Positions 1-32,000 of a stretch of 32,000 nt of DNA are shown in pieces. The number at the start of each line of letters is the position of its first letter. Position 1 is the stretch's first letter. The stretch is taken from contig NZ_CP060530.1 in NCBI RefSeq assembly GCF_016806735.1, forward strand, positions 780,001-812,000. The letters are read 5' to 3'. The translations under genes and the position numbers were made by a program. The notes below the pieces were generated by a model. It was not told the DNA's origin. It made no database searches and saw only the letters and a program-made list of their open reading frames with translations. This DNA comes from Candidatus Micrarchaeum sp. (GTDB lineage: Archaea; Micrarchaeota; Micrarchaeia; Micrarchaeales; Micrarchaeaceae).

Positions 1-251
1 TTAGATAAATTATTGTAAGCGGCCTGCAGGCTGCTAAAATTGACCTTTTCTGTAATATAGTTGTATTTGAGAGTATTATAATTTGATTGCAACACGCTAT
101 AGTTATACTTCACAGAGGAATAGGAGCCTTGTGTTTGTGCATAAGAGCTTAACGTTTGTGCATACAGCACTGCAAAGACCGCTACCAAAACGAGCAATAT
201 GCCTATTACTACGTAAAATCCGGTCTTAGGCTTAGATACGCTTTTTGCCAT
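1..251 (-). CDS. Partial hypothetical membrane-anchored coiled-coil protein (N-terminus in window, C-terminus runs off the left edge)
   Basis: Not in the supplied ORF track because no stop lies in the window. Hand translation from ATG at 249-251 (minus) gives MAKSVSKPKTGFYVVIGILLVLVAVFAVLYAQTLSSYAQTQGSYSSVKYNYSVLQSNYNTLKYNYITEKVNFSSLQAAYNNLS... This shows a basic N-terminus, one hydrophobic helix, then about seven xxYxxLx heptads. Confidence 0.4.
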   Translation of the reverse strand, partial: MAKSVSKPKTGFYVVIGILLVLVAVFAVLYAQTLSSYAQTQGSYSSVKYNYSVLQSNYNTLKYNYITEKVNFSSLQAAYNNLS

Positions 252-493
252 AATAGAACCCCCTACCCTATTTGACTATTAGTAAGAAGGTTTTTTAATT
301 GTATTTGTTTGATAGGCAATATTGAGAAGTATTTTGTATATGAGCAGATTTCAGTTAGTGACAAGTACCCTTGTTTTGTGGGCTAATTGACTTTGCCATG
401 CTACTTCTTTATATAGTTTTACAAAATTTGAGTTAAGATAGAGCTACGACCACAAGATTTCGTAAGACAAATGATATACTCTTTAGCCAAAGA

Positions 494-751
494 GTGCACG
501 AGATAGTCACAAACAGCATTCCGGGAAACGGACTCCTGAAGCTGCCAAAGCTGAGCTACAACCTCACAGAAGCCAAGAGGTCAGTGCTGGAGAAAATGGC
601 GCAGAGCGAGAAAAAGAGCGTGGCGCAGATAGCAAAGGAGCTGAAGAAGACCAGGGGCATGATATACCAGCATCTCCGCGAGTTAAGGGACACCGGATAC
701 ATTGATGAAAAATTCAACATAACCGAGGCAGGCAGGCTGGCCCTGCTTTGA
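494..751 (+). CDS. Small winged-helix (HTH) transcription regulator, copy 1
   Basis: 85-aa ORF with a GTG start in the track. ...SVAQIAKELKKTRGMIYQHLRELRDTGYIDEKFNITEAGRLALL reads as helix-turn-helix plus wing (ArsR/MarR/TrmB-like size and layout). Family-level call only. Confidence 0.6.
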   Translation: MHEIVTNSIPGNGLLKLPKLSYNLTEAKRSVLEKMAQSEKKSVAQIAKELKKTRGMIYQHLRELRDTGYIDEKFNITEAGRLALL

Positions 752-752
752 A
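542..752 (+). repeat. Direct repeat copy A (wHTH gene cassette, ~211 nt)
   Basis: Hand alignment with 1511-1717 shows about 7 substitutions plus one 4-nt indel. There are two GGCA units at 727-734 here versus one at 1696-1699. Confidence 0.9.
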
Positions 753-833
753 TTAGATTTGTGTCAGCACCAGTTTAATATTATATAGCACTAATCTGAA
801 GAACGATTTAAATAATTTAAATGCAAGCGTTAC

Positions 834-1487
834 GTGTGCGGTGTTAATTTGGTAAAATATGCAGTATTGCTTGGGTATGGGCTATTTGATCGTTCAAATA
901 TGAATTATAAGAGATACTTGGATAATTTTGCTTCTTTTGTCAATAAAAACGATATTGAAGTTGTTGTACTTTCCGGGGGACACACAAACCCTAGAAGACC
1001 CTTGGAATCCGAGGCAAGCACCATTTCAAAATATCTAGAGAGTAAAGTAAAGCGGAATACAACCATACTGCTTGAGGAAAGATCTTTGACAACTGCTCAG
1101 AACATAGAGTTTACCAAGCCATTGCTAAAATTGGCCAATGGTTCAGTGACGGTTTTTTGTGATAATATAAGGCCGCCAAAAGTCATGTGGTATGTACTGC
1201 ATTATTGGTTCGGACTTGGCAAGAGAGAAATAGAAAACTATTTTTTGGAATATTCGCTTAAATTCTATTCAAAACATTTTACCACAGAGCAAATAGGAAA
1301 AGAACTGAATAAGGGCTTGGCATATAAAAATGTCCTAGTAAAACCTTATCGCATGCGCACCGGCATCGATGACGCAATTAGTGGTCAAATTGCTTCTGTT
1401 CTAGAAATAAACTCCTTATATGATAAAAAGCTGTACTCAAAATTGATTAAGGCAGTAAAGATAAAATTTGGACTTAAAAACCGATGA
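834..1487 (+). CDS. DUF218 / YdcF-ElyC-like protein
   Basis: 217-aa ORF. VVLSGGHTNP...ESEASTISKYL...ILLEERSLTTAQNIEF matches the DUF218 signature as I remember it (SGG...SEA..m..yL....E..S.nT.eN). The gene is very AT-rich (a 60-nt sample at 901-960 has 15 G+C). The GTG start at 834 is uncertain. Confidence 0.5.
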   Translation: MCGVNLVKYAVLLGYGLFDRSNMNYKRYLDNFASFVNKNDIEVVVLSGGHTNPRRPLESEASTISKYLESKVKRNTTILLEERSLTTAQNIEFTKPLLKLANGSVTVFCDNIRPPKVMWYVLHYWFGLGKREIENYFLEYSLKFYSKHFTTEQIGKELNKGLAYKNVLVKPYRMRTGIDDAISGQIASVLEINSLYDKKLYSKLIKAVKIKFGLKNR

Positions 1488-1798
1488 AAATAGCAAATAC
1501 CACAAACAAACTGCAAAAGCTGAGCTACAACCTTACAGAAGCCAAGAGGTCAGTGCTGGAGAAAATAGCGCAGAGCGAGAAAAGGAGCGTGGCGCAGATA
1601 GCAAAGGAGCTGAAGAAGACCAGAGGCATGATATACCAGCACCTGCGCGAGTTAAGGGACACCGGATACATTGATGAAAAATTCAACATAACCGAGGCAG
1701 GCTGGCCCTGCTTTGAAGTTGTCAAACATAACTATTTTTATTTAATTATTGAAATTTACATACAGATGATAGCTTCAGGGACAGCTTTTCGACAATAG
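1484..1798 (+). CDS. Small winged-helix regulator, copy 2, with C-terminus altered by a 4-nt indel (variant or decaying paralogue)
   Basis: 104-aa ORF. Its ATG overlaps the stop of the DUF218 gene (ATGA at 1484-1487). Residues LSYNLTEAKRSVLEK...FNITEAG are nearly identical to copy 1. Loss of one GGCA unit then shifts the frame past the ancestral TGA (1714-1716), adding WPCFEVVKHNYFYLIIEIYIQMIASGTAFRQ. Confidence 0.5.
   Translation: MKIANTTNKLQKLSYNLTEAKRSVLEKIAQSEKRSVAQIAKELKKTRGMIYQHLRELRDTGYIDEKFNITEAGWPCFEVVKHNYFYLIIEIYIQMIASGTAFRQ
1511..1717 (+). repeat. Direct repeat copy B (wHTH gene cassette, ~207 nt)
   Basis: See copy A. The offset between copies is 969 nt at the 5' end and 965 nt at the 3' end, consistent with a single 4-nt deletion. 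Confidence 0.9.
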
Positions 1799-1893
1799 TG
1801 CGCCTCTGGGGGCTATACGCCTGATATCATAAAATTAATATCTCTTATAGACAACTGAAAAAGGCGTGATTAGGTCCTTTTCAGGGCCTGCTA

Positions 1894-2370
1894 TTATCTA
1901 AAAGAATCTTTGTACATATCACGTTTGCCTTCTGCCATTCCACGCTTTACATTTTCATTTTTTTCTTCAAGATTTTTTATTTCCTTGCGCACATCATCAG
2001 AAATTTCTTGTGGTACTTGCTCTGACAGCTTAGGGTAACGGGAATTCCTTAACATGCGTATTGCGTCCTCTCTCGAATCATCAATACAATCAATCTCTTG
2101 TTGCAAATAATAGCCAAATATTTTAGCAGTATTTGGCACAGTTTTTAGAAAATCACTCGTTTGAGTACGATTTTCACCATCCATATTTCTGAAGGAATGT
2201 GCAAGAGAAGAACCTAATGCGTCACAAACAGAACTTGGGCTTCTACCCTCATCAATCAGACGAACGGCTTGTTCCAACATAGAAACAAAAACAGAACCGT
2301 TTGTTTTAGTTGTTTTTTGTTTAGAAGTTTCGTTTGACGGGTTTGACGTCGTTGTTGACGATGTTGTCAT
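1894..2370 (-). CDS. Hypothetical protein with Thr/Ser-rich N-terminus
   Basis: 158-aa ORF with no overlapping competitor. No motif I recognise. Confidence 0.4.
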   Translation of the reverse strand: MTTSSTTTSNPSNETSKQKTTKTNGSVFVSMLEQAVRLIDEGRSPSSVCDALGSSLAHSFRNMDGENRTQTSDFLKTVPNTAKIFGYYLQQEIDCIDDSREDAIRMLRNSRYPKLSEQVPQEISDDVRKEIKNLEEKNENVKRGMAEGKRDMYKDSFR

Positions 2371-2651
2371 AATACCACAAAGTCACTCTATTAATCCAGA
2401 TATTTATACCTATTTGTATGGCAGGCTTGGCTCTAAAAGTGTGCTCCTAATCTTACCTTAGAAGCAGATTTAACACTTTAAGAGCAAGATAGACTAAAGG
2501 AGCGAAGCCTTGAATAAAATGTACAGCCAGCTGCGACATCCGGGACAGCGTTTTGGTGATCACCAAGCCATTTAGACTATCTGAAGAATGCTCTGTTCAA
2601 TACTTCATCGGCACACTTTGCGATAAATATTACCGTAAAATCATAACCTAT

Positions 2652-3248
2652 CTAAAATTTTGCCTTCTCGCGCATTATAATATTGGTTATGCTTTTTTCC
2701 ACTACCTTAGAACTGCCAATTCCTATTTCTGACAATACCTCATCTATTTTTGCTTTTGCCGAATCCTCTTTGTCCTTGGTTGCCATTATCTCTGCTTCGA
2801 TCCCCAGGCCAAAATCTTCGATATTTTCTAGGGATATGCTAACGCCTTCAAGTGTATACGCTAATCGTTTTTTCTTTATAGTGCAGAAAGGCTTGAACCC
2901 TATGGCTTTTAGGATAGCCGTAGCTTCATCCATCGATCCGACTAAGATTTCGTGTTCTTCCCAAGAATTGTGGTCATTTTGCCTGGTTATTACCTTGACG
3001 TTCATCATCGTCTCTTTTGGCTTATCCGCTGCCGACTGTTCGCGCAGCCTTAAACTGAACGATCCAACCTCTTTCATTTCGATTTCTGAAAAAGATTTCG
3101 TATCTTTCCTGCAGAAATAGGTATCATTAATGTTAACAACTCCTTCATTCGAAGCTCCAAGCGTTATGAGCTTATTTTTAACCGCTTCATATTCAGAACC
3201 GTTCAATAAGGCCCTCTTTTCAACTTCCTGAACCCTTTTTTCTTCCAT
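2652..3248 (-). CDS. CYTH-domain protein (CyaB-like class IV adenylate cyclase / triphosphate tunnel metalloenzyme family)
   Basis: 198-aa ORF. It has an N-terminal EVEKRALL (ExExK-type motif), DTYF, SFSLRLRE, KVITRQ, and a C-terminal KKKRLAYTLEGVSISLENIEDFGLGIEAEI resembling the CYTH ...R..y...g..v.lD.v..LG.f.EiE pattern. Confidence 0.65.
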   Translation of the reverse strand: MEEKRVQEVEKRALLNGSEYEAVKNKLITLGASNEGVVNINDTYFCRKDTKSFSEIEMKEVGSFSLRLREQSAADKPKETMMNVKVITRQNDHNSWEEHEILVGSMDEATAILKAIGFKPFCTIKKKRLAYTLEGVSISLENIEDFGLGIEAEIMATKDKEDSAKAKIDEVLSEIGIGSSKVVEKSITNIIMREKAKF

Positions 3249-3378
3249 AGTAAAACCTTTTTTACTTTAGGATGGCTTTATAATCTATTAATTATTCCCA
3301 TAAGTTGTTTGAGTCCGCTGGGCCATAGGTTTACGCATGCTGCGATTAGGATTTAAGCGTTTGCACTAAAATAGCGAT

Positions 3379-3990
3379 ATGGTGCTTGCAATGGACATAA
3401 TACTTCCAAAGCTAGATTTCATTTACTCCTATATATACGACAGCACCTTGGCAGAATTGTCAGGCAAAGAATATAGCAACAAAATGCAGGCAGAAGCTGA
3501 GAGATACATAAAGATTGTCAGCAAGGAATTCTCAAAATACTCTAAACGTGTGCTTAAGGACATTTCAAATATCTCAGGGCTTAAATGGCAGAAGCAGTTG
3601 ATAGACGTTTATATATCCAAATATGCCCCTAATTCGCTATCTGTGCCTCTGACCATAAAGATTTACAAAGACGTAAAGGTAAGCACTGCAATATTAGTGC
3701 ATGAGCTTGTGCACAATATTTTATTCCAGAATGAGAAGCACATACGATACAAAAAACTTTTTGAGGATTTCAGGAATGAGAGCACCGCCACAAAATACCA
3801 TGTAATAGAAGGTGCAATATTATACGAACTTAACAGAATGCTGTTTTCTGACGGGCTCAGTGGCTTTTTCGAATACGATAACTGGAAATCCGAAGACGCT
3901 GGTAAGGAATACAACAGAGCCATAAGCATCGTAATTGATAAAGGCCCAGAGAATATAATAAAAAAGTACATAGCAAGAAACTCAAAATAA
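3379..3990 (+). CDS. Hypothetical protein with HExxH motif (possible zinc metallopeptidase-like)
   Basis: 203-aa ORF. ILVHELVHNILF contains HExxH. No further family signature recognised. Confidence 0.4.
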   Translation: MVLAMDIILPKLDFIYSYIYDSTLAELSGKEYSNKMQAEAERYIKIVSKEFSKYSKRVLKDISNISGLKWQKQLIDVYISKYAPNSLSVPLTIKIYKDVKVSTAILVHELVHNILFQNEKHIRYKKLFEDFRNESTATKYHVIEGAILYELNRMLFSDGLSGFFEYDNWKSEDAGKEYNRAISIVIDKGPENIIKKYIARNSK

Positions 3991-4124
3991 GCTAGACGCC
4001 CTTGTTGTAAACAATAATGGTTAATTGCATGAGAATTTAGTCAATAAACCTTGGCTGGCTTGATCGCATAGGATATCTATGCAAATCTTTAATAGGTTTT
4101 TATGGAATTACCTAAGACGATAAC

Positions 4125-17514: not shown

Positions 17515-18435
17515 ATGGTGGATGCCAAAGCCCAGTTCGACGCGGTGCTTGCCGAGGTCAGGAAGAAGGTGGCAGGCAACGACGCAATAATAAAGCTCAT
17601 TTTCATAGCCATAGTGGCAAACGGCCACGTTCTCCTTGAGGGAGTCCCCGGAGTGGCAAAGACGACAATGTCAAAAGCCGTATGCGACGCAATACAGGCC
17701 GATTTCGGAAGGATTCAGGGAACGCCGGACCTGGAATTCAAGGACATAGTAGGATACGCATATCTGGATGACAAGACCAAAAACGTTGAGCTCAAGAAGG
17801 GGCCAATATTCACCAACATGCTGCTCATAGACGAGCTCAACAGGGCGCCGCCCAAGACAACCACGGCTTTGCTCGAGGCACTGGAAGAAAGGCAGGTAAC
17901 CCTTGGAAATGAGACCATGCCGTTGGAGAAGCCGTTCATAGCGCTCGCAACTCAGAACCCGCTTAACATAGAGGGCACTACAATGCTCCCGAAGGTTTTG
18001 GCCGACAGGTTCCTCATGCGCATAGCCGTCGATTACGCTTCGATAGAGGCAGAGCAGCAGATGCTCAGGATAAAGGAGTCTGAGGAAAACATAACCGTAA
18101 AAAGGGTAATGGGGATAGAAGACATACTTGAGCTGCAGAAGCTTGCCAAAGGCGTAAAGGTCCCCGACAACGTAATAAACTACATAACAAAAGTGGTCAA
18201 TGCTACCAGGAAGGACATACACGTAGTCATGGGCGGAAGCCCAAGGTCCGAGATAAGCTTCATGAGCTGCGGAAAGGCCAAAGCGCTTATAGAAGGAAGA
18301 AACGAGGTTTCGATAGACGACATAAAGTACCTTGCAAGGCCAGTTCTCAGCCATAGGATAGTGGTGAGGAGCAGCGGAGGAGTAGGAGTAAACGGAGTCA
18401 TAGACGGAATAATAGCCACTACGAAGCCCGACTGA
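17515..18435 (+). CDS. MoxR-family AAA+ ATPase
   Basis: Walker A GVPGVAKT, Walker B LLIDELNRAPPKTTTALLEALEERQVT, ATQNPLNIEGT and SPRSEISFM are typical of MoxR/RavA-like proteins. Confidence 0.9.
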   Translation: MVDAKAQFDAVLAEVRKKVAGNDAIIKLIFIAIVANGHVLLEGVPGVAKTTMSKAVCDAIQADFGRIQGTPDLEFKDIVGYAYLDDKTKNVELKKGPIFTNMLLIDELNRAPPKTTTALLEALEERQVTLGNETMPLEKPFIALATQNPLNIEGTTMLPKVLADRFLMRIAVDYASIEAEQQMLRIKESEENITVKRVMGIEDILELQKLAKGVKVPDNVINYITKVVNATRKDIHVVMGGSPRSEISFMSCGKAKALIEGRNEVSIDDIKYLARPVLSHRIVVRSSGGVGVNGVIDGIIATTKPD

Positions 18436-18515: not shown

Positions 18516-19187
18516 TCACTTCTTCTTTCTGCCGAAAAGCTTGTCCTTTATAGTAAGCTTCTCCTCCTTTATTTCTATGCCGTACTCCTTTGCCAGCTCA
18601 GGATGTTCCTTTAGGTACTGCATTTGGAAGTTGTGGAATTTCTCCTCGTTCTTGAGCTTGTATTCTGCCTTCTTTTTCTCCCACTGCGGCTTCATCTTCT
18701 TCCATTCCTGTATGGTATAGCCGTATGGAGCGTGCTCCCTTATTGACGGGGAATTGAAAGCGTAGGAATAGAAATTTTTGTAATAATCGTAATCCTCGTT
18801 TACCATGTGGTCCCTGCTAACCTTGACCCCTTCGCTGTCCAGGAATTTTATTATCTCGTCTATGCTTATTTTCTCCTTCAGGTTGTCGGCATTTGGGGGA
18901 TTGTATATTATGGTTATATTGCCCCTTATGTAATGCACCCTGGCCTTGAGTATTGCGTCGTTGAGCATAAGCCTGTACTGCAGCCTTGCAGCGTGCTCCG
19001 GATCCTTGAAGTAAGCCTTGTCTACGTTGCTGAACACTACCTTGGCCACAATCCTGTACGGAACCCTGTAGAGGTTGCCGTTCTCCACTATGTACTGCTT
19101 TTTTATCTTCTCGTCGTCTATATTGGCGTTGTTTATGAGGTCCTGCTGATACTCGCTCATCTTTGGCTGCTTCTCTGACTTGTCCAT
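18516..19187 (-). CDS. Hypothetical protein: HMA-like (ferredoxin-fold) segment lacking CxxC, plus Lys-rich helical C-terminus
   Basis: 223-aa ORF. VVFSNVDKAYFKDPEHAARLQYRLMLNDAILKARVHYIRGNITIIYNPP...ISIDEIIKFLDSEGVKV has the beta-alpha-beta-beta-alpha-beta spacing of heavy-metal-associated domains, but without the metal-binding cysteines. The tail is KKMKPQWEKKKAEYKLKNEEK...LFGRKKK. Weak, by-eye call. Confidence 0.45.
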   Translation of the reverse strand: MDKSEKQPKMSEYQQDLINNANIDDEKIKKQYIVENGNLYRVPYRIVAKVVFSNVDKAYFKDPEHAARLQYRLMLNDAILKARVHYIRGNITIIYNPPNADNLKEKISIDEIIKFLDSEGVKVSRDHMVNEDYDYYKNFYSYAFNSPSIREHAPYGYTIQEWKKMKPQWEKKKAEYKLKNEEKFHNFQMQYLKEHPELAKEYGIEIKEEKLTIKDKLFGRKKK

Positions 19188-21395: not shown

Positions 21396-22277
21396 TTATC
21401 CCGTAGCGTTTGGATGGTCCGCTATATAGCTCTCGAACGCGTTTATGGTTGCGTTTTCTACATTCTTAGTATAGGAGATAAGATTTAGCGCACCAACATC
21501 TGGACTGAAGCCGGCGCTGGTAGCCTTTATTATATAGTTGCCATACATGGCTTCGGCCATATACACGGTCATGTTTGGTTTTGGGCCGAGATAACTGCCG
21601 AACTGTTCAGTGGCATTTGCACTCATGTTTGAAATTCCGAAGAAGTACACAGTAATATTGTCATGGGTATATTTAGATTTCGAAACAGAGGATTCAGACA
21701 TTACCAAAGACATAGATGGCCTGCAAAAACCTCCGTTGGATTCGAACAAAGCGTTATAACCTGCTGCATTTGATGGATTTATGCCCTCCACGGCAGCGTA
21801 TTCCGCAATCGGCTGGGCCCTGTTCAATTTGGACAGATTATATGCAGTGGATATCATTGTCTGATTTTGCATATATCCGAGTATGCCTTCCAGGCCAGTG
21901 CAGTTTGCGTTTGTGGAATATGGCTTGAAAACGGTCCTGAATGAGTATTTGAGTGGCGAGCTGAAGCTATAGTTACTTATGAAGGCATTGGCAGCCAAAT
22001 AGGTAACCGGCTCAAAGATTTTACCGATTCTCGGACTTGTCGGAGTTGTTGAATTATTTGCCACAGATATAGTACTGATCGTTGATGTAGACGCATTATG
22101 CGGCACATAGGAATGCAATGTGATTATTATGCCTGCTAGTATAATTACGATTATTATGCCCAGCGCTATTGTTGATTTCCTGCCCCTTTTTATGGCAGTA
22201 TTATTGTAGTTATTGTTAGCGGGCTCTTGAGCAAGTATCGCACCTTTGGCGTCCTGTTCTGCATTTAATTCAGTCAT
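21396..22277 (-). CDS. Membrane-anchored extracellular protein rich in N-glycosylation sequons (hypothetical)
   Basis: I prefer the ATG at 22277 (MTELNAEQ...), 10 nt after the upstream TAG, over the track start at 22343, which overlaps the upstream gene. It has a cytoplasmic N-terminus, one TM (STIALGIIIVIILAGIIITL), then about 230 aa with at least 10 NxS/T sequons counted by eye. Confidence 0.55.
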   Translation of the reverse strand: MTELNAEQDAKGAILAQEPANNNYNNTAIKRGRKSTIALGIIIVIILAGIIITLHSYVPHNASTSTISTISVANNSTTPTSPRIGKIFEPVTYLAANAFISNYSFSSPLKYSFRTVFKPYSTNANCTGLEGILGYMQNQTMISTAYNLSKLNRAQPIAEYAAVEGINPSNAAGYNALFESNGGFCRPSMSLVMSESSVSKSKYTHDNITVYFFGISNMSANATEQFGSYLGPKPNMTVYMAEAMYGNYIIKATSAGFSPDVGALNLISYTKNVENATINAFESYIADHPNATG

Positions 22278-22287
22278 GATATCATGC

Positions 22288-24648
22288 CTAACTATTCTTG
22301 TTGAATGTATATGTGGAATCTGGATTGAATACGTAGACTGCATAGCTGAAGCTCGTTGAGCTTCCAGTCATCAGCTCTGGGCCAATCCAGCCGCCGGTTC
22401 CGTCGTAAGGTATGTTGCCACATGCCAGTATATAAACGTCGTTGTAGTGGGTTGAAGAGAACAACGGAGTAGTCTGCTCCAGGTTCTCTGTAACGCTGCA
22501 ACCATATGTTGGGAATGAACCACCATCATACATTATGGCTGAAGTGCCAGGCTCGGTGGTTGAATTAAGTATGCCTTCCTGTCCTCCTGAAGTTGCGTAA
22601 GTAAGAATCACCAGCGAACTTGGTATTGAGCCGTGGTTTACCCAGAACACAGGTTGAACGCCGCTATTGTAATTTGATCCGTTTGTTGCCCACAGCTGAT
22701 AATTTGTGGCAGGGTTCCCACCTATTGCAATTGCACCGGATGATGATGAATCGGCCGTTGCGCTGCATGCGTTGCCATTTGTAATGTACCCTATATTTGT
22801 GGAGCAGTACTGGCATGTTCCACCTCCTTCTGAATTTATGTTCCAATCTACGCTTGACATTGATTGGTATATTGCAGCAACGCATTCGCTGAAAACACCG
22901 TTGTTATTGCTACATGACGGACTGAATGTCGTGGCGCTGCTGCTGTTAGTAGTACATGTTCCGTAGAACGGTATTGTGCTGGAGCTTGTGGTTGTAGATG
23001 TTGAAGTTGTTGTCGAAGTCGATGTTGTAGTAGAGGTCGATGTTGTTGTCGAAGTAGAAGTGGTTGTCGATGTCGATGTTGTGCTGGTGCTGGTGGATGT
23101 TGTCGACGTTGTTGTGGACGTTGAGGTTGTTGATGTCGAAGTCGTAGATGTCGATGTCGTAGTGCTCGTTGACGTCGTAGTAGATGTTGATGTTGTGCTT
23201 GTGGATGTGGACGTTGTTGATGTGGTTGTACTCGTTGATGTGGTTGAAGTTGTTGTTGATGTCGATGTTGTTGATGTAGAGGTAGTAGTGCTCTGGAATA
23301 CTGCAGTTTCATTTATCGGATTGTTAAGCGTTACCGAAGTGGATGTTGCAGTTCCGGAATAGCATCCTGTGCCCGTGCACGTCCAATCTATGAAAACGTA
23401 ATGCCCTGTAGTGTTTGGCGTTTCTGATATGGTAACGCTGCTGGATGGTGCGTACCATGAAGTAGCAGGAGAAACTGTTCCCCCTATGGAAGGCGAAGCG
23501 ATGTCATAAAGCTCATATTGTTCTGCATAAGATACGGTGACGTTCTGGCTTTTGCAGGTCGACACCGTTGCGCTGCCTGAATTGCTGTCGGAAGTGAACC
23601 CGTCTATGGTTACGCTCTTGAAAACGAATCTGGTTCCGGATGAGTTGTATATTATTGGGTCAAAGCTGTACGTGTGCGTAGTGTTGCAGCCCCAGTCGAA
23701 ATTCGTTGGCTTCTTTGTGAGCTGCGAATATGAATATGAAACGCCGTCTATGGTTGCAATGCCTGAAGGATTGCTTTGCAGCGACGTCGGTATGTTTGAT
23801 ATGTTGAAGAATATCGGGACTACTGCAACGAAATTTATTGTTTTTGTCGCATTAAGGCCTGCATAATTGGCATTTACCGTAACATTCGAAACTGTTGTAC
23901 CCCAAATGTAGTCAATCGCCTGGCCGTTGGTTCCAGTTGTTACGAACTGGCTCTGCAGCGAATAAGGTGGAACAGCATTTGTCCCGTTCTTTGTAAATGT
24001 TGCAGTCAAGTTCACTGTTGCGCCGCTCTGCGGATATCCCAGAAGGTCAACCCTTGCAATTAGTTCGTCTTTTGCGTTGTTGGCAGGGTTGGTTGAATTG
24101 ACTACCGAAAGCGAAAGCGTGTAACTTGGTGAAACGAGAGGCTCAGCGTGCGCGCTGTAGATGCCTTTGTAAGTCTCCTTAGGGACTGTAGAGCACGAAG
24201 AGGGAGAAGATGGTTTAGGGGCAAGGCCGCAATATGATGCATTAAGATATATGCTTCCGGAGAAGAACTGCCCTAGTGTAGAGGATACGCCTGGGATCTC
24301 TAGCACACATATGACAGAACCTCCGGGAAGAACGAAAGAGGGTTTGCATTGCACGGCAGTCGTGTTTTTTCCATTTACGCTGGCATAAAGTTCAGGATCG
24401 TATATGGGATATTTCCGGGAGTTGGTTATGAAGAGGCCCATGGTGGTTGCATGGGTTGTGGCATTTGTGCCGAAAATCATGTCCTGGCATACTGCGCCTG
24501 TGAGAAAGCTGCATGTTGATGGAACTATTATCTTTGGGACTGCGACGTACAGGTAAAGCAGGGATATGACCACTGCAATAATTAGTATTGCCCAGCCGTA
24601 TGTTATGAGGTATTCCAGTGCGGATTGCGCTTTTCCCAAATATATCAC
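22288..24648 (-). CDS. Large surface protein with archaeal class III (type IV prepilin-like) signal peptide, B-repeat-like segment, Thr/Ser stalk and Cys-containing C-terminal domain
   Basis: The N-terminus MIYLGKAQSALEYLITYGWAILIIAVVISLLYLYV has a short basic leader and a KA|QS cleavage context. It has Glu at +5 of the predicted mature end and a ~25-aa hydrophobic helix (QxxxEYL-type motif of PF04021-like pilins). GGTVSPATSWYAPSSSVTISETPNTTGHYVFIDWTCTG resembles InlB B-repeat-type domains. GTG start. Confidence 0.7.
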   Translation of the reverse strand: MIYLGKAQSALEYLITYGWAILIIAVVISLLYLYVAVPKIIVPSTCSFLTGAVCQDMIFGTNATTHATTMGLFITNSRKYPIYDPELYASVNGKNTTAVQCKPSFVLPGGSVICVLEIPGVSSTLGQFFSGSIYLNASYCGLAPKPSSPSSCSTVPKETYKGIYSAHAEPLVSPSYTLSLSVVNSTNPANNAKDELIARVDLLGYPQSGATVNLTATFTKNGTNAVPPYSLQSQFVTTGTNGQAIDYIWGTTVSNVTVNANYAGLNATKTINFVAVVPIFFNISNIPTSLQSNPSGIATIDGVSYSYSQLTKKPTNFDWGCNTTHTYSFDPIIYNSSGTRFVFKSVTIDGFTSDSNSGSATVSTCKSQNVTVSYAEQYELYDIASPSIGGTVSPATSWYAPSSSVTISETPNTTGHYVFIDWTCTGTGCYSGTATSTSVTLNNPINETAVFQSTTTSTSTTSTSTTTSTTSTSTTTSTTSTSTSTTSTSTTTSTSTTTSTSTTSTSTTSTSTTTSTTSTSTSTTSTSTTTSTSTTTSTSTTTSTSTTTSTSTTTSSSTIPFYGTCTTNSSSATTFSPSCSNNNGVFSECVAAIYQSMSSVDWNINSEGGGTCQYCSTNIGYITNGNACSATADSSSSGAIAIGGNPATNYQLWATNGSNYNSGVQPVFWVNHGSIPSSLVILTYATSGGQEGILNSTTEPGTSAIMYDGGSFPTYGCSVTENLEQTTPLFSSTHYNDVYILACGNIPYDGTGGWIGPELMTGSSTSFSYAVYVFNPDSTYTFNKNS
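22975..23292 (-). repeat. 106-codon Thr/Ser low-complexity tract (degenerate ACN/TCN/AGY short tandem repeats) inside the 786-aa ORF
   Basis: Translates as STTTSTSTTSTSTTTSTTSTSTTTS...TSTTTSSS without interruption. Boundaries were read from codons: Q at 23293-23295 on the N-terminal side, I at 22972-22974 on the C-terminal side. Confidence 0.9.
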
Positions 24649-27067: not shown

Positions 27068-29503
27068 TCAGTCGAATATGTTTGCCGGATTCTCCATCGA
27101 TATCAGTTTTACGTATCCTGCCGATATGTAGAGCTTGAGCTGCTCCGCACCCGCATCGGAAATCGAATATAAGCGGTCCTTGAAGTCTTCGAGCCTGTCG
27201 TCGTTCATGAACGCTATGAATGTCTTGGAATTGGCGCTTACGGGTATGTTCTTGAACTTGCTTGAAGGAGCGTATATCACTACGTTGTGCCTCTCTCCGC
27301 CAACGACCACGTTCATGTCTGCGGTCTGGCTAGTGTCGAGATCGGTGAACACGTAGGCATGGGTCACCATGTATATCCTGAGCTTCTTGAACACCGCAAG
27401 GTATTCTATGTCGTGCTTGCTCTCGTCTATCCAGCCCTTTGGCGCATACAGGTCATCAGCCGATATGACGAGCCCGTTTGCAATCAGCTGGTCTAGAAGC
27501 ACTTCGACGTTTGAAGGGGTAAGGTTGACCGGAATCCCGTTGTACCTTATGTTGCTGGCTATGGCGAGCTTGAACTCGCTTATCGACAGAGGCATATAGC
27601 GCCAGTGGTAATACGTGTTGAGCTTCTGGAAAACAAGCATCACGTCTTGTGCATTGAGGGTTATAAATGTGCGCTGCTGTTTCGGCATGTGCGGCACGTC
27701 TATGAAGAAATCGTCCCTGTTCGGCGACCTCACCATCGTTACCATGAGGAGCATCAGCACTATCGCAACTATCAGCGCTATGTCCTTCGAAGTTATCTTT
27801 ATGACCGGAGCGGGATTGCTTGCCACGTAGGAGAATTTCTGCGAGAGTATCTTTGCCGTGAAATTCAGCGTTCCGAACTGCTCGCCTATTCCCTTAGGAA
27901 GCGAATAAAGTATCGTGCCGTTTGTCAGCGTGCCGTTCAGAGGGTATTTGCCGTTAAGCGTCATTGTATAGTCGAGCCCTGTCAGCGGAGCGCCGTCGGA
28001 GCTTATGTAGAACCTGAATGAATTTGACGTGTAGTTGGAATATACCTCAGTAACGTTTACCGGAGGCACTCCGAAGAGCGCGCTGGCATAGAGGTTGTCG
28101 GAAAAGCCCTTGAGCTGGATTATATAGCTGCCCGGGACAAATGACGATTTTATTAGCTTTACAAAGGTGAAATTTCCGGTTGCGGATATGGAGGACAAAG
28201 GTATGGTTGAAACCTTGACCATGTTCTCAGTGTATATTGAAAGATGGGGCTGTATCTGTATCGGAACGCTCGAATGCGTATATATCTGCATCGTTATCGA
28301 CTGGGAGCTTCCGAGTACAATAGTAGAAGGCAGCGAAACCGTGCCGCTGCTTATGTAGCTTGATGGCTCGCTTATGTACCTGTATATTGATTTGCCGGAA
28401 TTGCCATAGCTGGAATTTGTGTATATTTCAGCGTAAAGCCATCCCGACTCAAGGGCTGCGACATTCTGAACAGTATAATTTATCTTGGGGCTTGGCATTG
28501 CTATTCCGGCCGAGCCCGACTCGGTCCTGGATGCGTTTAGCGCAATCGTTTCCAATCCGTGCGCGTAGCGCGGAAGCCAGAAGGCGCTCGAAATTGCTTT
28601 TGCCATGTCTTCCGAAGCCAATGATGGAGACGGCCAAGAATTTAGGTAATTAGAGAACGCCACTATGCTGCCATTGAAAGCATTGACGTATGATATGTCG
28701 CCATAGCTGCGCCCGCCGGAAAACGAAAATGTAGGATTGTTGAATGCGAATATGCTGTTTGATGATACCGAGGACGTTGTAAACATGTAGGAGGGTATGC
28801 GGGAATTAGGGACTATCACACCGTTCTGCAGCACGACCCTTGAGAATGCCTGCCCTATATATATTACGCTAGTCCCCCTGTCAAGAAGGTAGTGCATCAG
28901 CGTTATGTTGCTCGAGCCGTAATTGCTAAGCATTGCCTGCGGCATTAGCCCGTTCGGTATTATAAGGATGGAATTGTTTGAAATTGTTGGGAGATCTGAT
29001 TCGTTTATTACAGTTAGGTTTCCGACTTCGGAAGTGAGTCCGTAGAGCGCAAGGTCGGATTGCACAACGTCCTCGAAAGCCTGGAAATCTCCGCAGTTTA
29101 CACACCCTGACTGCGATGCGTTAAGCATGTACACTTTTGCAGGGAAGTTGGATTTGAGAAGGGACACGTTTACGTAGAGTTTTGTAATGTTGGAAGTAGA
29201 ATACGAAAGTTCCGCGTATGGAATGACAAACTGCGATTCGTTGCTGTCAAGCAGGGCCTGGTAGCTCACATACGTGCTTAGCGAAGTAGGCAGGACCACT
29301 GGCGGCGCAGGTGGAGTTATTTTTATGTGGCTTAGCTCCGAGGATAGGTATAGGCCGCTGGCTACCATCGCAATGATGAATATTGCGGCAATGATTATCA
29401 CAAGTTTTTTGAAATTTGCCAATGTTGATGCACCGTCATTTTTCCTCTTTCTTGGTAAGCGCCTTGGTAAAAAGGCGCGACAGGAAGTTCTGCTTTGGGC
29501 CAA
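27068..29503 (-). CDS. Large bitopic membrane protein: TM, ~520-aa sequon-rich ectodomain, TM, ~215-aa cytoplasmic domain (hypothetical)
   Basis: 811-aa ORF. TM1 is LVIIIAAIFIIAMVASGLYL and TM2 is IALIVAIVLMLLMVTMV. There are at least 18 NxS/T sequons between them by eye. The start is uncertain: TTG at 29503 in the track, or an alternative TTG at 29422 (LANFKKLVIII...) preceded by GGTG 8 nt upstream. Confidence 0.6.
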   Translation of the reverse strand: MAQSRTSCRAFLPRRLPRKRKNDGASTLANFKKLVIIIAAIFIIAMVASGLYLSSELSHIKITPPAPPVVLPTSLSTYVSYQALLDSNESQFVIPYAELSYSTSNITKLYVNVSLLKSNFPAKVYMLNASQSGCVNCGDFQAFEDVVQSDLALYGLTSEVGNLTVINESDLPTISNNSILIIPNGLMPQAMLSNYGSSNITLMHYLLDRGTSVIYIGQAFSRVVLQNGVIVPNSRIPSYMFTTSSVSSNSIFAFNNPTFSFSGGRSYGDISYVNAFNGSIVAFSNYLNSWPSPSLASEDMAKAISSAFWLPRYAHGLETIALNASRTESGSAGIAMPSPKINYTVQNVAALESGWLYAEIYTNSSYGNSGKSIYRYISEPSSYISSGTVSLPSTIVLGSSQSITMQIYTHSSVPIQIQPHLSIYTENMVKVSTIPLSSISATGNFTFVKLIKSSFVPGSYIIQLKGFSDNLYASALFGVPPVNVTEVYSNYTSNSFRFYISSDGAPLTGLDYTMTLNGKYPLNGTLTNGTILYSLPKGIGEQFGTLNFTAKILSQKFSYVASNPAPVIKITSKDIALIVAIVLMLLMVTMVRSPNRDDFFIDVPHMPKQQRTFITLNAQDVMLVFQKLNTYYHWRYMPLSISEFKLAIASNIRYNGIPVNLTPSNVEVLLDQLIANGLVISADDLYAPKGWIDESKHDIEYLAVFKKLRIYMVTHAYVFTDLDTSQTADMNVVVGGERHNVVIYAPSSKFKNIPVSANSKTFIAFMNDDRLEDFKDRLYSISDAGAEQLKLYISAGYVKLISMENPANIFD

Positions 29504-29570
29504 CCCTCTTCACTATTCCGTAGACCCTTATGTACCTGACACGCTTGTTGACCCTGGCTATGTATTTCAT
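29436..29570 (-). CDS. Candidate 44-aa highly basic small ORF (not in track)
   Basis: Hand translation gives MKYIARVNKRVRYIRVYGIVKRVGPKQNFLSRLFTKALTKKEEK*. The ATG lies 3 nt after the TAA of the 242-aa gene, and the TGA lies 13 nt before the alternative TTG start of the 811-aa gene. It competes with the track's N-terminal extension of the 811-aa ORF, so only one of the two readings can be correct. Confidence 0.3.
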   Translation of the reverse strand: MKYIARVNKRVRYIRVYGIVKRVGPKQNFLSRLFTKALTKKEEK

Positions 29571-29573
29571 AGT

Positions 29574-30302
29574 TTAACCCTTGAGTTCTATGTAGCCCGT
29601 GGTGACCATCTTGTTGAGCATCTGTTCTATCCTTGGCGCCGGTATCTTGTAAGATTTGGAGAATTCAATTATGTCGATGGTACTGTTGTGCGCGTCTATC
29701 CAGTCCTCCAGCATCACCATGAGCGATTCGTCCGAATAGGTCTCCAGCTGCTTCAGCCTTTCCTTTAGCTCCCTGTTCTCCGAAACTGCCTGCGTGGCCT
29801 GAACGGTAAGGTTCTTGTTCGAAGCGGTGAGCTCTATGTTGAGGCGCTTGAGCTCCCTGTACTCGTTGAATAGGGAATCGTAGTTGTTGAACAGGGCGCT
29901 GTAATTCTGCGAGAGCGAGCCCAGTACATCATCTATTGTGGAATCGACGTACTGGTATAATCCGGCAGGGTCGGCATAGTACAGGTCGGTTATAAGCGAA
30001 AGCACGCCGAGCAGGTTCTTCACCACGTAAAGCTTCCTCATCTTTTCGCTAGTGTCCAGGGCTATTGAATACTGCACATCTATGGAATCCGGCTTTAGCG
30101 TTATTATGAAGAAAAGGAAAGGATTTTTCTGCATGTCCCTGCTCTCCACGCTCAGCAGAACCAGGCTGTTGTCCTGCTCGAGCTTGACGGAGAACATCTG
30201 CAAGGTGGAGAATCTTTGGGCTATGCTTGGGAAATCGCCAGTTAGCGTGGCCTTGAGCGAGAACTCTGCTATTTTTGGTTCTATCAATCCTGTTTCAGCC
30301 AT
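29574..30302 (-). CDS. Hypothetical cytoplasmic protein: N-domain + Tyr/Leu heptad coiled coil + C-terminal winged helix
   Basis: 242-aa ORF with no TM. Residues 132-187 form heptads (QNYSALF NNYDSLF NEYRELK RLNIELT ...). The C-terminus, SLMVMLEDWIDAHNSTIDIIEFSKSYKIPAPRIEQMLNKMVTTGYIELKG, looks like a winged helix. A TATA-like CTTTTAATTTAT lies 24-35 nt upstream. Confidence 0.55.
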   Translation of the reverse strand: MAETGLIEPKIAEFSLKATLTGDFPSIAQRFSTLQMFSVKLEQDNSLVLLSVESRDMQKNPFLFFIITLKPDSIDVQYSIALDTSEKMRKLYVVKNLLGVLSLITDLYYADPAGLYQYVDSTIDDVLGSLSQNYSALFNNYDSLFNEYRELKRLNIELTASNKNLTVQATQAVSENRELKERLKQLETYSDESLMVMLEDWIDAHNSTIDIIEFSKSYKIPAPRIEQMLNKMVTTGYIELKG

Positions 30303-30347
30303 CGGAAGACCTTTAGGTTATCTACAACATAAATTAAAAGTTTATTC

Positions 30348-30731
30348 TTATATTTGTTGCCCTGTGCTTTTGGATGCGCCCCTGCCCTGCTGCTTCAGCC
30401 CGGGCATGTAGCTGAGCAGCGACAGGGCGTACATCAATATTATTATTGCGATGCCGGCTGCAACCGCGCCTAGGCTTCTCCCGGTTATTATTAGCAGCGC
30501 CGCGAATATGACCCCTATTGCCAGGTACGATACGGTTTTCGAGTTGTACGAATCCCTGGCTTTCTTGTATTTCACGTAGCAATCCTTGCATACTACTAGC
30601 CTGTAGTTCTTCTCATTGTGCGTAACGTTGTGCTTGAACCAGCGCAGCGATTTTATAACATAGTCGTCTTTCACTTCGAGCCCGTTGAGCTCCTTTCCGC
30701 ATATTATGCATCTTGTCTCCTTTTTCATCAT
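30348..30731 (-). CDS. Zinc-ribbon membrane protein (CxxC...CxxC N-domain + 2 TM helices), hypothetical
   Basis: 127-aa ORF. CIICGKEL...VCKDCYVKY is followed by two hydrophobic helices (VSYLAIGVIFAALLIITG, AVAAGIAIIILMYALSLL). The start lies 2 nt after the upstream stop. Confidence 0.55.
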   Translation of the reverse strand: MMKKETRCIICGKELNGLEVKDDYVIKSLRWFKHNVTHNEKNYRLVVCKDCYVKYKKARDSYNSKTVSYLAIGVIFAALLIITGRSLGAVAAGIAIIILMYALSLLSYMPGLKQQGRGASKSTGQQI

Positions 30732-30733
30732 AA

Positions 30734-31039
30734 TCAGCTAAAATTTATCGTAGCCTCAAAAATCCTCCCGGATTCTGCAAGGAGCTTCTGCTCGTCCATG
30801 CTGTCTATGGTGCTGTTTATCGTTACGTCGTCCATGCCAAGCCTCCTGAGCACGTTTACGATTGCGTCCCTCTTCAGGTTTATTTTCTCCAGCATGCCTG
30901 CAAACGCTATTGCGTTTATGTGCCTGTGGGCCTTCTCCATGTCCGAGAAGAGCTTGGCCATGCTCGATTCGTCCACCTTGTATATGGTGAGTATGCGCCT
31001 CAGCTCCTGCCTGCTTATCGTAAATGTGTCCTTAGCCAT
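30734..31039 (-). CDS. Small soluble helical protein (hypothetical)
   Basis: 101-aa ORF. Its start overlaps the ATPase stop by 8 nt, which suggests translational coupling. No family recognised. Confidence 0.5.
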   Translation of the reverse strand: MAKDTFTISRQELRRILTIYKVDESSMAKLFSDMEKAHRHINAIAFAGMLEKINLKRDAIVNVLRRLGMDDVTINSTIDSMDEQKLLAESGRIFEATINFS

Positions 31040-32000
31040 TCACAGCACCCACGGATGACATTATTCTGGTTATCAATAGGTCCTCTATGCTCAGGTTCTT
31101 GAGGAACTGGACTACGTCCTCGGTAGTTATGCCGTTTGACATAAGCAGGCGTATGAAGTCTAGTATCTTTGAGGACCTGTTCTGGTCGTTGAGGACCTTG
31201 AATATCGAATTTATGGCTTCTGTGCTTACGTTGTATTCTATGAACTTGTTCTTGAGCTCCTCCTCCTCGAACTGGTAGTCCTTCTGTATTATGCCGGCGG
31301 AAAGCTCGCTCTGTGTCAGTATGTCGGTTATGTCTAGCGTGTACACGTATAACGGTTCCTCTCCGCGCACCCTGTCAAGCACAAATATCTCCGGGAAGCG
31401 CAGCGATGTCTGGAATGCCATGTTGACAGCAGCCTGGCCCACGCCGAACTTGCTTATCTCGGAGCGTATGAAGTCGGAGAAGTTTATGGATCCCTGTATG
31501 TAATCGAGGAACTTTTCGAACCTTATCCTTAGTATGAAAGTTGTGCCTACGTTGGAAAATATGGCTTCGTTTATGTCCGTTGGATTCTGCGATGCCACTA
31601 TTAGGCCGAACTGGTATTTTCTGCCCTCCCTGACTATCATGACCGCGTCGCTCTTCTCATCTCCCGCTATCTTCCATGCCTCGTCGAGAACGACAAGGGT
31701 CTTAAGCCCTTTTGCCTCGTTCCAGCCCTCGAAGCGCATGCGTTCCTTGAGCGTCTGAAGTATGAAAAGGGCGGCAAGAGCCCTGAACCTCTCGTCAGGA
31801 AGGCCAGACAGGTCTATGTCGACAAGCCCCGAGTTCGCGAGCTTTTCGAGGTTGACAGTGCTTTTCCTTGCGAAGTAGTCCTCTCCCTCTCGTGCGAACT
31901 GCCTTAGCCTGTATATCGCATTTTCGAGTTCGGCAGGATATTCGTAGGTGCCCTCCTGCAGCTGCTCTTCAAGTATCGATATCGCGTCCTTTAGCGTTGG
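31032..32000 (-). CDS. FtsK/HerA/VirB4-superfamily P-loop ATPase, C-terminal ~320 aa (N-terminus outside window)
   Basis: The track ORF starts at an internal Met (31739). I translated 31740-32000 in the same frame and found no stop (...LSGLPDERFRALAALFILQTLKERMRFEGW...). It has a Walker B LVVLDEAW, then REGRKYQFGLIVASQNPTDINEAIFSNVGTTFILRI (compare HerA ..EGRKfG.....SQrPs.l...vlsqcnt.i.lrl). Walker A is not in the window. Confidence 0.75.
   Translation of the reverse strand, partial: PTLKDAISILEEQLQEGTYEYPAELENAIYRLRQFAREGEDYFARKSTVNLEKLANSGLVDIDLSGLPDERFRALAALFILQTLKERMRFEGWNEAKGLKTLVVLDEAWKIAGDEKSDAVMIVREGRKYQFGLIVASQNPTDINEAIFSNVGTTFILRIRFEKFLDYIQGSINFSDFIRSEISKFGVGQAAVNMAFQTSLRFPEIFVLDRVRGEEPLYVYTLDITDILTQSELSAGIIQKDYQFEEEELKNKFIEYNVSTEAINSIFKVLNDQNRSSKILDFIRLLMSNGITTEDVVQFLKNLSIEDLLITRIMSSVGAVNG

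Follow-up and report, generated by a model that had tools for sequence, protein, structure and literature searches.

A lineage-wide gene cluster of Micrarchaeota as a probable divergent relative of the Ced, Ted, and type IV secretion systems

DPANN archaea lack biosynthesis of nucleotides, lipids, and most amino acids, and the way in which they gain material from their hosts is an open question. For the Micrarchaeota, tiny archaea living attached to other archaea, the gene cluster analyzed here offers a concrete candidate in cultivated Micrarchaeota–Thermoplasmatales co-cultures. Part of this cluster lies at the right edge of a 32,000-nucleotide (nt) stretch of the Candidatus Micrarchaeum sp. 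genome (contig NZ_CP060530.1, positions 780,001 to 812,000; hereafter the window), where an original prediction had proposed an undescribed membrane translocation module around a HerA/VirB4-class ATPase. A membrane-associated module of this kind is supported by our analysis; the cluster is lineage-wide, is under stronger constraint than the neighboring topoisomerase gene, and resembles archaeal DNA-transfer machines. We conclude that it is probably a strongly diverged, vertically inherited chromosomal derivative of the conjugation-type family that comprises type IV secretion systems (T4SS) as well as the archaeal Ced and Ted systems, with a VirB4 protein that has been split.

The ATPase and the genes upstream of it

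The reading frame at the right edge of the window is free of stops up to that edge, and its translation contains the predicted motifs LVVLDEAW (Walker B) and REGRKYQFGLIVASQNPTD...TTFILRI, together with an arginine motif (REGRKY...SQNP). Extension to the right, on contigs identical to the window over the shared region, recovered the N-terminus of the 505-amino-acid (aa) protein, its Walker A motif (GITGAGKS) just beyond the window edge, and the upstream genes; residues ~420–501 form a helical C-terminal tail. Among NCBIfam models the ATPase matches CedD (E = 1.7e-18), VirB4-like CD1110 (1e-17), CedB (2.9e-16), VirB4_plasma (5.3e-16), and HerA (2.4e-14), with all scores against Ced models far below the curated cut-offs. 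Profile searches of the PDB returned HerA (8wiv, 1.9e-21) and VirB4 (4ag5, 6.6e-16 over residues 59–325), and the DUF87/HerA central domain is matched at E = 9.9e-17; HerA models overall give E values of 1e-12 to 1e-19. By score, then, the ATPase lies between the VirB4/CedB/CedD and the HerA models, in keeping with the mixture of VirB4 and HerA motifs first noticed by eye. The placement of CedB and CedD in the HerA clade in the literature agrees with these intermediate scores (PMC11868833). On sequence comparison, the motor is a VirB4/CedB-class member of the FtsK-HerA superfamily.

The closest relatives outside the ATPase family are proteins of 810–913 aa that match the NCBIfam CedB model over almost its full length (E = 1e-34 to 1e-42), and two of these sit in loci with CedA1- and CedA-like genes. 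Such Ced-like loci (L090:168-5578, L093:4659-10396, L092, and L094) are ordered as a CedA1-like gene (84 aa), a CedA-like gene (291 aa; NCBIfam CedA, E = 1.4e-25), a 60–65-aa transmembrane (TM) protein, and a CedB-like ATPase of 870–913 aa, followed by an unassigned protein of 426–438 aa and then small open reading frames (ORFs). The Ced-like loci L089, L090, and L092 carry ENA accessions in the ERZ272 range, as does L002, which holds the locus of the window.

Directly upstream of the ATPase lie, in order, two proteins of 276 and 277 aa (p276 and p277), five polytopic proteins of 371–541 aa, a sixth paralogue of these, and a membrane protein of ~245 aa. The p276 and p277 proteins, each a two-TM hairpin with a cytoplasmic domain, are paralogous (hhalign probability 98.7%) and align end to end with the N-terminal residues 1–257 of the CedB-like proteins, at 95.5% and 96.3% (E = 1.6e-8 and 1.7e-9); control alignments of unrelated family pairs gave 0.2–8%. 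Some p276 members also match, below threshold, the N-terminus of VirB4_plasma (positions 24–276, best E = 3.6e-5) and CedB. A PDB sequence-profile search with p276 returned nothing meaningful. These comparisons identify a VirB4 N-terminal domain that is encoded separately and twice, by p277 and p276, directly upstream of the ATPase. As to a VirB3-like small membrane partner of VirB4, the N-terminal TM hairpins of p276 and p277 match, weakly and in register, the 60–65-aa proteins encoded ahead of the CedB-like ATPases (E = 1e-4 to 1e-2), which hydrophobic composition could explain.

The polytopic proteins, of which there are five to seven per locus, are mutual paralogues (hhalign 97.5–100%). 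Among 18,950 NCBIfam models, CedA is their sole recurrent match, found for four of ~137 members with a best E value of 2.6e-7. The matched region covers a loop motif that the paralogues share, P-[FW]-[RT]-x-x-x-G-G ... P-L, and that can also be spotted by eye in CedA-like proteins. We regard the polytopic proteins as putative CedA/VirB6-like channel subunits. The statement that the locus differs from Ced by having no polytopic CedA-like protein was an artefact of the window edge, as these paralogues lie just upstream of it.

In some loci the head of the cluster holds a small protein of 80–122 aa with two TM helices (L088:727-972, L060:34-279, and L073:7635-8003). The best Pfam matches of these proteins, all below cut-off, are to T4SS_pilin (PF18895; E = 5.9e-4 and 0.01) and TrbC/VirB2 (0.03); the L073 copy has no match, and consists of an N-terminal segment resembling a signal peptide followed by two hydrophobic helices. 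The small proteins resemble the N-terminal hairpin of the polytopic paralogues, and the same relation between small protein and N-terminal hairpin has been reported for CedA1/CedA and VirB2/VirB6 (PMC9905601). They may be the counterpart of a T4SS pilin; in the genome of the window, any such gene would lie more than 10 kb upstream of the ATPase. Individually these links are weak or moderate, but taken jointly they connect four gene families of a single cluster to four separate components of a T4SS. Given the CedA-matching polytopic proteins, the VirB4/CedB N-terminal homologs, and the pilin-like protein, the cluster is better seen as a divergent member of the T4SS/Ced/Ted group than as the new class of system first proposed.

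Gene order and the accessory proteins

The cluster comprises ~16 genes over roughly 16–17 kilobases, of which the six genes in the window form the distal part, and its order is kept in ~80 species-level genomes. Orthologs of the window genes occupy the same position in 58–80 other genomes, with median protein identities of 39–73%, which marks them as true genes and not as ORFs that arose by chance. Counted over 82 non-identical loci, p277 and p276 are adjacent and in order in 77 of 77 cases, p276 and the ATPase in 75 of 80, the ATPase and p101 in 80 of 82, p101 and p127 in 78 of 80, p127 and p242 in 67 of 75, and p242 and p784 in 69 of 70. The 3' end of p784 is convergent with Top6B, an arrangement seen in 49 of the 58 loci that allowed the test. 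Ca. Mancarchaeum acidiphilum Mia14, a complete genome whose ATPase is 74% identical to that of the window, has the same order and the same convergent end at Top6B-KH. Conservation of gene order in related genomes, which had been named as a check on the original prediction, is therefore strong. The ATPase is unusually conserved, with a median identity of 73% (75 loci) versus 61% for Top6B and 47% for the KH protein. Two ATPase orthologs, P0260 (1196 aa, 53% identical) and P0261 (1026 aa, 46%), contain inteins with detectable N- and C-terminal splicing regions; inteins are usually found in highly conserved proteins.

In five loci with a broken order (L079, L086, L064, L040, and L035), p242-p44-p784 stays together but is separated from the ATPase block, which requires that these three genes can be expressed alone. 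The TATA-like element CTTTTAATTTA in the spacer before p242 is a candidate internal promoter. Together, the block displacement and this element support two modules, one of the N-terminal-domain proteins, the ATPase, p101, and p127, and another of p242, p44, and p784, the latter probably with its own promoter; the suspicion that the genes form two transcription units fits both observations.

The genes seen in the window include the predicted ORFs of 101, 127, and 242 aa with their spacing (an 8-nt overlap between ATPase and p101, then 2 nt and 45 nt). The supposed ~70-nt spacer that follows p242 is not empty: it holds a conserved gene for a 44-aa protein, p44, so that six genes rather than five are in view. 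Since p44 fills this spacer, the large protein last in the row starts at the TTG codon given in Table 1 and measures 784 aa, the length found in all database orthologs, rather than 811 aa; the alternative start at 29503 would overlap the p44 gene in another frame. As first reported for the four partners other than p44, none of the five in the window (p101, p127, p242, p44, and p784) could be assigned to a named family in Pfam, NCBIfam, PADLOC, or the PDB, nor could p242 and p784 by Foldseek of their models.

Profile comparison identifies p101 as a free copy of the C-terminal helical tail of the ATPase: residues 13–94 of p101 align to residues 420–501 of the ATPase (hhalign 97.5%, E = 7.9e-12), and the relation is also visible by blastp (E = 0.002–0.009). 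No family model in Pfam, NCBIfam, or PADLOC matches p101 above threshold. The Pfam matches of EAP30, IF2_N, and ZapB to p242 or p101 are likewise below threshold and were taken as noise from coiled coils or small helical domains. In p127, the Cys residues of the zinc ribbon are conserved in at least 90% of 80 orthologs, and its family matches are weak and generic for Zn-finger or TM proteins (TIGR04104, E = 0.002; DUF983, E = 0.0037).

The AlphaFold2 model of p242 (mean predicted local distance difference test score, pLDDT, of 83) agrees with the domain sketch drawn from the sequence. Foldseek returned no significant PDB match to this model (best E = 5.9e-3), and a PDB sequence-profile search gave nothing meaningful; resemblances to the START, BamC-N, and KA1 folds were weak, limited to the N-domain, and were rejected. 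Homologs of p242 fall into 250 clusters, each labeled hypothetical or mislabeled as ZapB. The label "cell division protein ZapB" that NCBI attaches to some orthologs is probably wrong, as the Pfam ZapB match to p242 scores 25.4 bits against a gathering score of 31.5 and covers the coiled coil only. In distant relatives with ATPases 40–43% identical to that of the window, a p242 homolog directly follows the ATPase, with hidden Markov model (HMM) E values of 8.3e-63 (L088) and 1.5e-36 (L095). The order runs 2-TM protein, polytopic protein, p276-like protein, ATPase, and p242-like protein in L088, and p276-like protein, ATPase, and p242-like protein in L095. Judged by these matches, no partner of the ATPase is conserved as deeply as p242.

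A further distant Micrarchaeota relative, L096:10001-12327, has an ATPase of 625 aa whose extended C-terminal tail still matches the p101/tail profile. The gene that follows it encodes a protein of 150 aa whose match to p242 is confined to the coiled coil and the C-terminal part (E = 4.4e-11). The combination of a partial p242 with a long ATPase tail suggests that the accessories are modular.

The p44 gene was called by gene callers in L001, L002, L004, L005, and L007, and tblastn found matches in 58 loci with a median identity of 49%. It adjoins p242 in 63 loci and p784 in 62; both its sequence and its place are kept in Ca. Mancarchaeum acidiphilum and ~60 other genomes.

For p784 the model (mean pLDDT 78.8) also agrees with the initial sketch. 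Its ectodomain is predicted to consist of an alpha/beta domain (~45–285) and approximately three immunoglobulin (Ig)-like beta-sandwich domains (~286–540), and its cytoplasmic domain is alpha/beta-helical and conserved. Foldseek recovered only generic matches to tandem Ig or macroglobulin domains (E ~1e-7, TM-score ~0.1), and no Pfam, NCBIfam, PADLOC, or PDB family was found; matches of the cytoplasmic domain to designed TIM barrels in the PDB were discarded as a repeat artefact. Of 19 N-x-S/T sequons, 18 fall within the ectodomain, whose median identity (34–38%) is lower than that of the cytoplasmic domain (49%). Faster evolution of the ectodomain is what would be expected if p784 were exposed and had a conserved intracellular partner. 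It is probably a fast-evolving, glycosylated surface protein with Ig-like domains.

Table 1. Positions of the cluster genes and of other features in the window
Feature	Position	Strand	Description
ATPase, C-terminal part	31032..32000	-	Residues 184–505 (322 residues) of the 505-aa FtsK-HerA-superfamily ATPase, VirB4/CedB/CedD/HerA group
p101	30734..31039	-	Soluble 101-aa protein, free-standing paralogue of the ATPase C-terminal tail
p127	30348..30731	-	127 aa; N-terminal CxxC...CxxC zinc ribbon, then a hairpin of two TM helices
Spacer p127-p242	30303..30347	-	45 nt; AT-rich, TATA-like CTTTTAATTTA ~30 nt upstream of the p242 start
p242	29574..30302	-	242-aa cytoplasmic protein; alpha/beta N-domain 10–130, ~70-residue helix 132–204, small C-terminal winged-helix-like domain
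p44	29436..29570	-	44 aa, very basic, conserved; MKYIARVNKRVRYIRVYGIVKRVGPKQNFLSRLFTKALTKKEEK
p784	27068..29422	-	784 aa, TTG start at 29422; TM1 2–30, ectodomain, TM2 545–563, cytoplasmic domain ~590–775
786-aa protein	22288..24648	-	Starts MIYLGKAQSALEYLITYGWAILI; long Thr/Ser-rich linker (TSTSTTT)
315-aa protein	21396..22343	-	Secreted/membrane protein, after the 786-aa protein
223-aa protein	18516..19187	-	No assignment
MoxR-type AAA+ ATPase	17515..18435	+	AAA_3, E = 2e-48
CYTH-like ORF	2652..3248		Recognized by eye in translation
Winged-helix regulator-like ORF	1484..1798		Recognized by eye in translation

Relation to known systems and alternative explanations

Ced and Ted are the two characterized archaeal relatives, and both import DNA; we know of no archaeal machines other than those of the Ced/Ted type that move DNA between cells. 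Like the Ced system of Sulfolobales and Desulfurococcales (CedA, CedA1, CedA2, CedB, CedD, and CedE), the cluster is chromosomal, shows no relaxase or coupling protein, and combines an ATPase of the CedB/CedD/VirB4/HerA group with several paralogous polytopic proteins, whose sole recurrent family match is CedA, and with a small 2-TM protein related to their N-terminus. In Ced, too, the VirB4 N-terminal domain is spread over two polypeptides, CedB and CedD (PMC11868833). Here, however, this domain is wholly split off, giving two TM-anchored proteins and one ATPase-only polypeptide, and there are five to seven channel paralogues where Ced has two. The sequence similarity is marginal, the lineage is DPANN as opposed to the Thermoproteota of Ced, and DNA import, known for Ced, would be a prediction here.

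Ted and the remaining archaeal comparison were drawn from published descriptions. Ted of Thermoproteales (TedA, TedB, and TedC) is likewise a minimal chromosomal T4SS derivative, and TedC as described (PMC9905601) matches the layout of the pilin-like protein of L073; unlike in Ted, genes for VirC1/ParA, Rad50, or HerA were not found linked to the cluster. The SPEARE-type giant proteins of Nanohaloarchaeota, also DPANN, similarly link a VirB4-class ATPase to Ig-like surface domains, and with their VirB4/TraG-like ATPase domain are proposed to act at the host interface (PMC10266531). In those proteins the Ig repeats, TM segment, and ATPase are fused, whereas in Micrarchaeota they are encoded by separate genes (p784 and the ATPase). 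A bacterial parallel is offered by the chromosomal T4SS of Patescibacteria, which is related to the conjugation machinery of single-membrane bacteria and is conserved and relaxase-less in ultrasmall epibionts with reduced genomes. Its components include VirB4, VirB3, VirB6, and a T4SS_pilin-type pilin (PMC12102498), the last belonging to the same Pfam family as the best match of the small 2-TM protein, and the epibiotic way of life is reported to require its genes (PMC12102498). The Patescibacteria system nevertheless belongs to another domain of life, VirB4 is split in the Micrarchaeota cluster, and no homologs of TrsD, VirB8, or VirB1 were recognized there; the resemblance is thus one of lifestyle and logic and does not indicate a close sequence relationship.

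In the best-supported reading, VirB4 is split over three polypeptides, the channel family has expanded, and the accessories are lineage-specific. These accessories would be p101 as a duplicate of the ATPase tail, p127 as a zinc-ribbon membrane anchor, p242 as an adaptor in the cytoplasm that combines a coiled coil with a winged-helix-like end, the basic peptide p44, and p784. In such a machine the ATPase ring would dock via p277 and p276 onto the polytopic VirB6-like channel. Where the cell touches its Thermoplasmatales host, the ring would then drive a macromolecule, with nucleic acid as the likeliest cargo, through the membrane of the Micrarchaeota. The exposed contact element would be p784, coupled to the motor through its own cytoplasmic domain and p242. 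This mechanism rests on the architecture of the cluster, the function of Ced and Ted, and host dependence, including the absence of nucleotide and amino-acid biosynthesis in Mia14 (PMC5498576), with the Patescibacteria T4SS as a parallel (PMC12102498). The cluster may be how Micrarchaeota move large molecules across their membrane at host contact. A bolder extension, which we put forward tentatively and consider doubtful as it stands, would make it the machine by which Micrarchaeota interact with their hosts, an essential T4SS-derived conduit for uptake of host nucleic acid or other macromolecules, convergent with that of Patescibacteria, in which p242, p44, and p784 form a hitherto unknown device for contact sensing and coupling that gates the split VirB4.

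Several observations weigh against a T4SS/Ced/Ted origin. The top PDB and PADLOC scores of the ATPase go to HerA, and because HerA models score equally well, the ATPase core alone does not separate VirB4 from HerA. Similarity to CedA is seen in only ~3% of the polytopic members; hhalign found no significant relation between the polytopic families and three CedA-like sequences of the Ced-like loci (best probability 9%), and a PDB profile search with them found nothing. The matches to pilin and VirB4 N-terminal-domain families are all below curated cut-offs, HMMs of p101, p127, p242, p44, and p784 found no counterpart among all genes of the Ced-like loci L089–L094, and no coupling protein (VirD4), relaxase, or cell-wall hydrolase was seen in the cluster. 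Finally, the very high conservation and housekeeping neighborhood would also fit a core cell-cycle function. The cluster could accordingly encode a housekeeping FtsK-like DNA pump for segregation or division, with a membrane-anchored motor that would clear or move DNA at the septum and p242 and p44 as DNA-binding adaptors. Such a pump would account for the higher identity of the ATPase than of Top6B, the inteins in some ATPase orthologs, the housekeeping surroundings retained even in distant relatives, the long coiled coil of p242 with its sub-threshold ZapB matches, and the top PDB scores to HerA. We judge it rather improbable: a septal DNA pump would not be expected to come with five to seven polytopic paralogues, with a protein resembling a pilin, or with a glycosylated surface protein that evolves fast, the N-terminal-domain proteins match VirB4/CedB and not FtsK, and a ZapB match below threshold is typical of any coiled coil.

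That a T4SS-like architecture serves not nucleic acid but the assembly of a surface filament, or the secretion of proteins or effectors to the host, seems unlikely to us: no effector-like or toxin genes are recognizable in the cluster, the characterized archaeal relatives are DNA importers, and p242, with its winged-helix-like domain, and p44, with its basic character, would hint at nucleic acid. In its favor are the pilin-like protein at the cluster head, the requirement for VirB4 in pilus biogenesis of bacterial T4SS and the pili-like ARMAN–Thermoplasmatales connections, as described in PMC9905601 and PMC5498576, respectively, and the role in effector secretion that has been proposed for Nanohaloarchaeota proteins with a VirB4 domain (PMC10266531). 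An integrated conjugative or other mobile element, which the VirB4-like ATPase and conjugation-like membrane proteins could have indicated, is largely refuted and would be very surprising. The position next to Top6B-KH is constant in the great majority of testable loci and in the complete genome, neither the window nor any of five related loci contains tRNA genes, and the Pfam lists of neighboring genes contain no relaxase or integrase. The plasmid-borne relatives of the ATPase found by tblastn are at most 27% identical, and the G+C content of the locus is similar to that of surrounding genes. Also largely refuted, and with very little chance of being correct, is a HerA-based module for repair or anti-phage defense. 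The ATPase core does resemble that of the HerA-NurA complex for DNA end resection, with similar PDB scores and the HerA model matches given above; its partners, however, are membrane proteins, and its N-terminal domain is VirB4/CedB-like and not the HAS barrel of HerA. Searches of Pfam, NCBIfam, and PADLOC returned no NurA, Mre11, Rad50, Sir2, DUF4297, or nuclease partner, with NurA, Mre11, and Rad50 unmatched among the ~16 cluster genes and their neighbors. PADLOC returned only generic HerA/DndH P-loop matches for the ATPase and no credible match for eight partners, and the fixed, lineage-wide synteny is unlike that of defense islands. The original prediction had likewise set the locus apart from HerA-NurA repair operons and from type IV pilus or archaellum loci, and both distinctions hold.

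Searches of the searchable literature on Micrarchaeota with VirB4, type IV secretion, HerA, or conjugation found no description of the cluster, and archaeal "dark matter" surveys of 2015 and 2019 do not mention it. In the paper on the Mia14 genome, pili, Sec, and Tat are named under secretion and this locus is not; automatic JGI annotation already labels some ATPase orthologs as "VirB4 component." T4SS-derived archaeal systems as such are known; new are the lineage, the split VirB4, the expansion of paralogues, and five accessories that are orphans. Least certain are the assignments to VirB6 and pilin, the substrate, and the direction. If the assignment to the T4SS/Ced/Ted group is correct, the cluster would extend T4SS-derived systems to a DPANN lineage beyond Nanohaloarchaeota and would show a new form of VirB4 split, with two N-terminal-domain proteins and one motor. 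It would also define five protein families without known relatives as T4SS accessories, and would parallel what is seen in Patescibacteria, which among bacteria are the counterparts of DPANN.

Chromosomal setting of the window

Elsewhere the window carries genes for RNA polymerase B''/B'/A'/A'', a MoxR ATPase, a radical-SAM enzyme, the universal archaeal KH protein, and Top6B, and it is core chromosome of a DPANN archaeon of the Micrarchaeota. Identical copies of the p101 sequence occur on many public contigs, and the full-length ATPase is 98–99% identical to proteins of bins labeled Micrarchaeaceae, Micrarchaeota, "Marsarchaeota," or "Methanothrix." Several genome bins with near-identical copies of the locus, among them L008, L009, L021, and L074, are labeled Methanothrix sp., Candidatus Marsarchaeota, Acidiferrales bacterium, Acidoferrum sp., or Baltobacteraceae bacterium; the labels outside Micrarchaeota are probably errors of binning or taxonomy.

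At the opposite end of the window, positions 1–4000 have a G+C content of 38–39%, as compared with 44–54% elsewhere in the window, and contain the regulator-like and CYTH-like ORFs of Table 1. The MoxR-type ATPase adjoins the unassigned 223-aa protein on the other strand. Neither the 786-aa nor the 315-aa protein has a match in Pfam or NCBIfam; by motif alone, the start of the former resembles the class III (type IV pilin-like) signal peptides of archaea. The genes for these two proteins lie just past Top6B-KH as seen from the cluster, on the same strand as the cluster.

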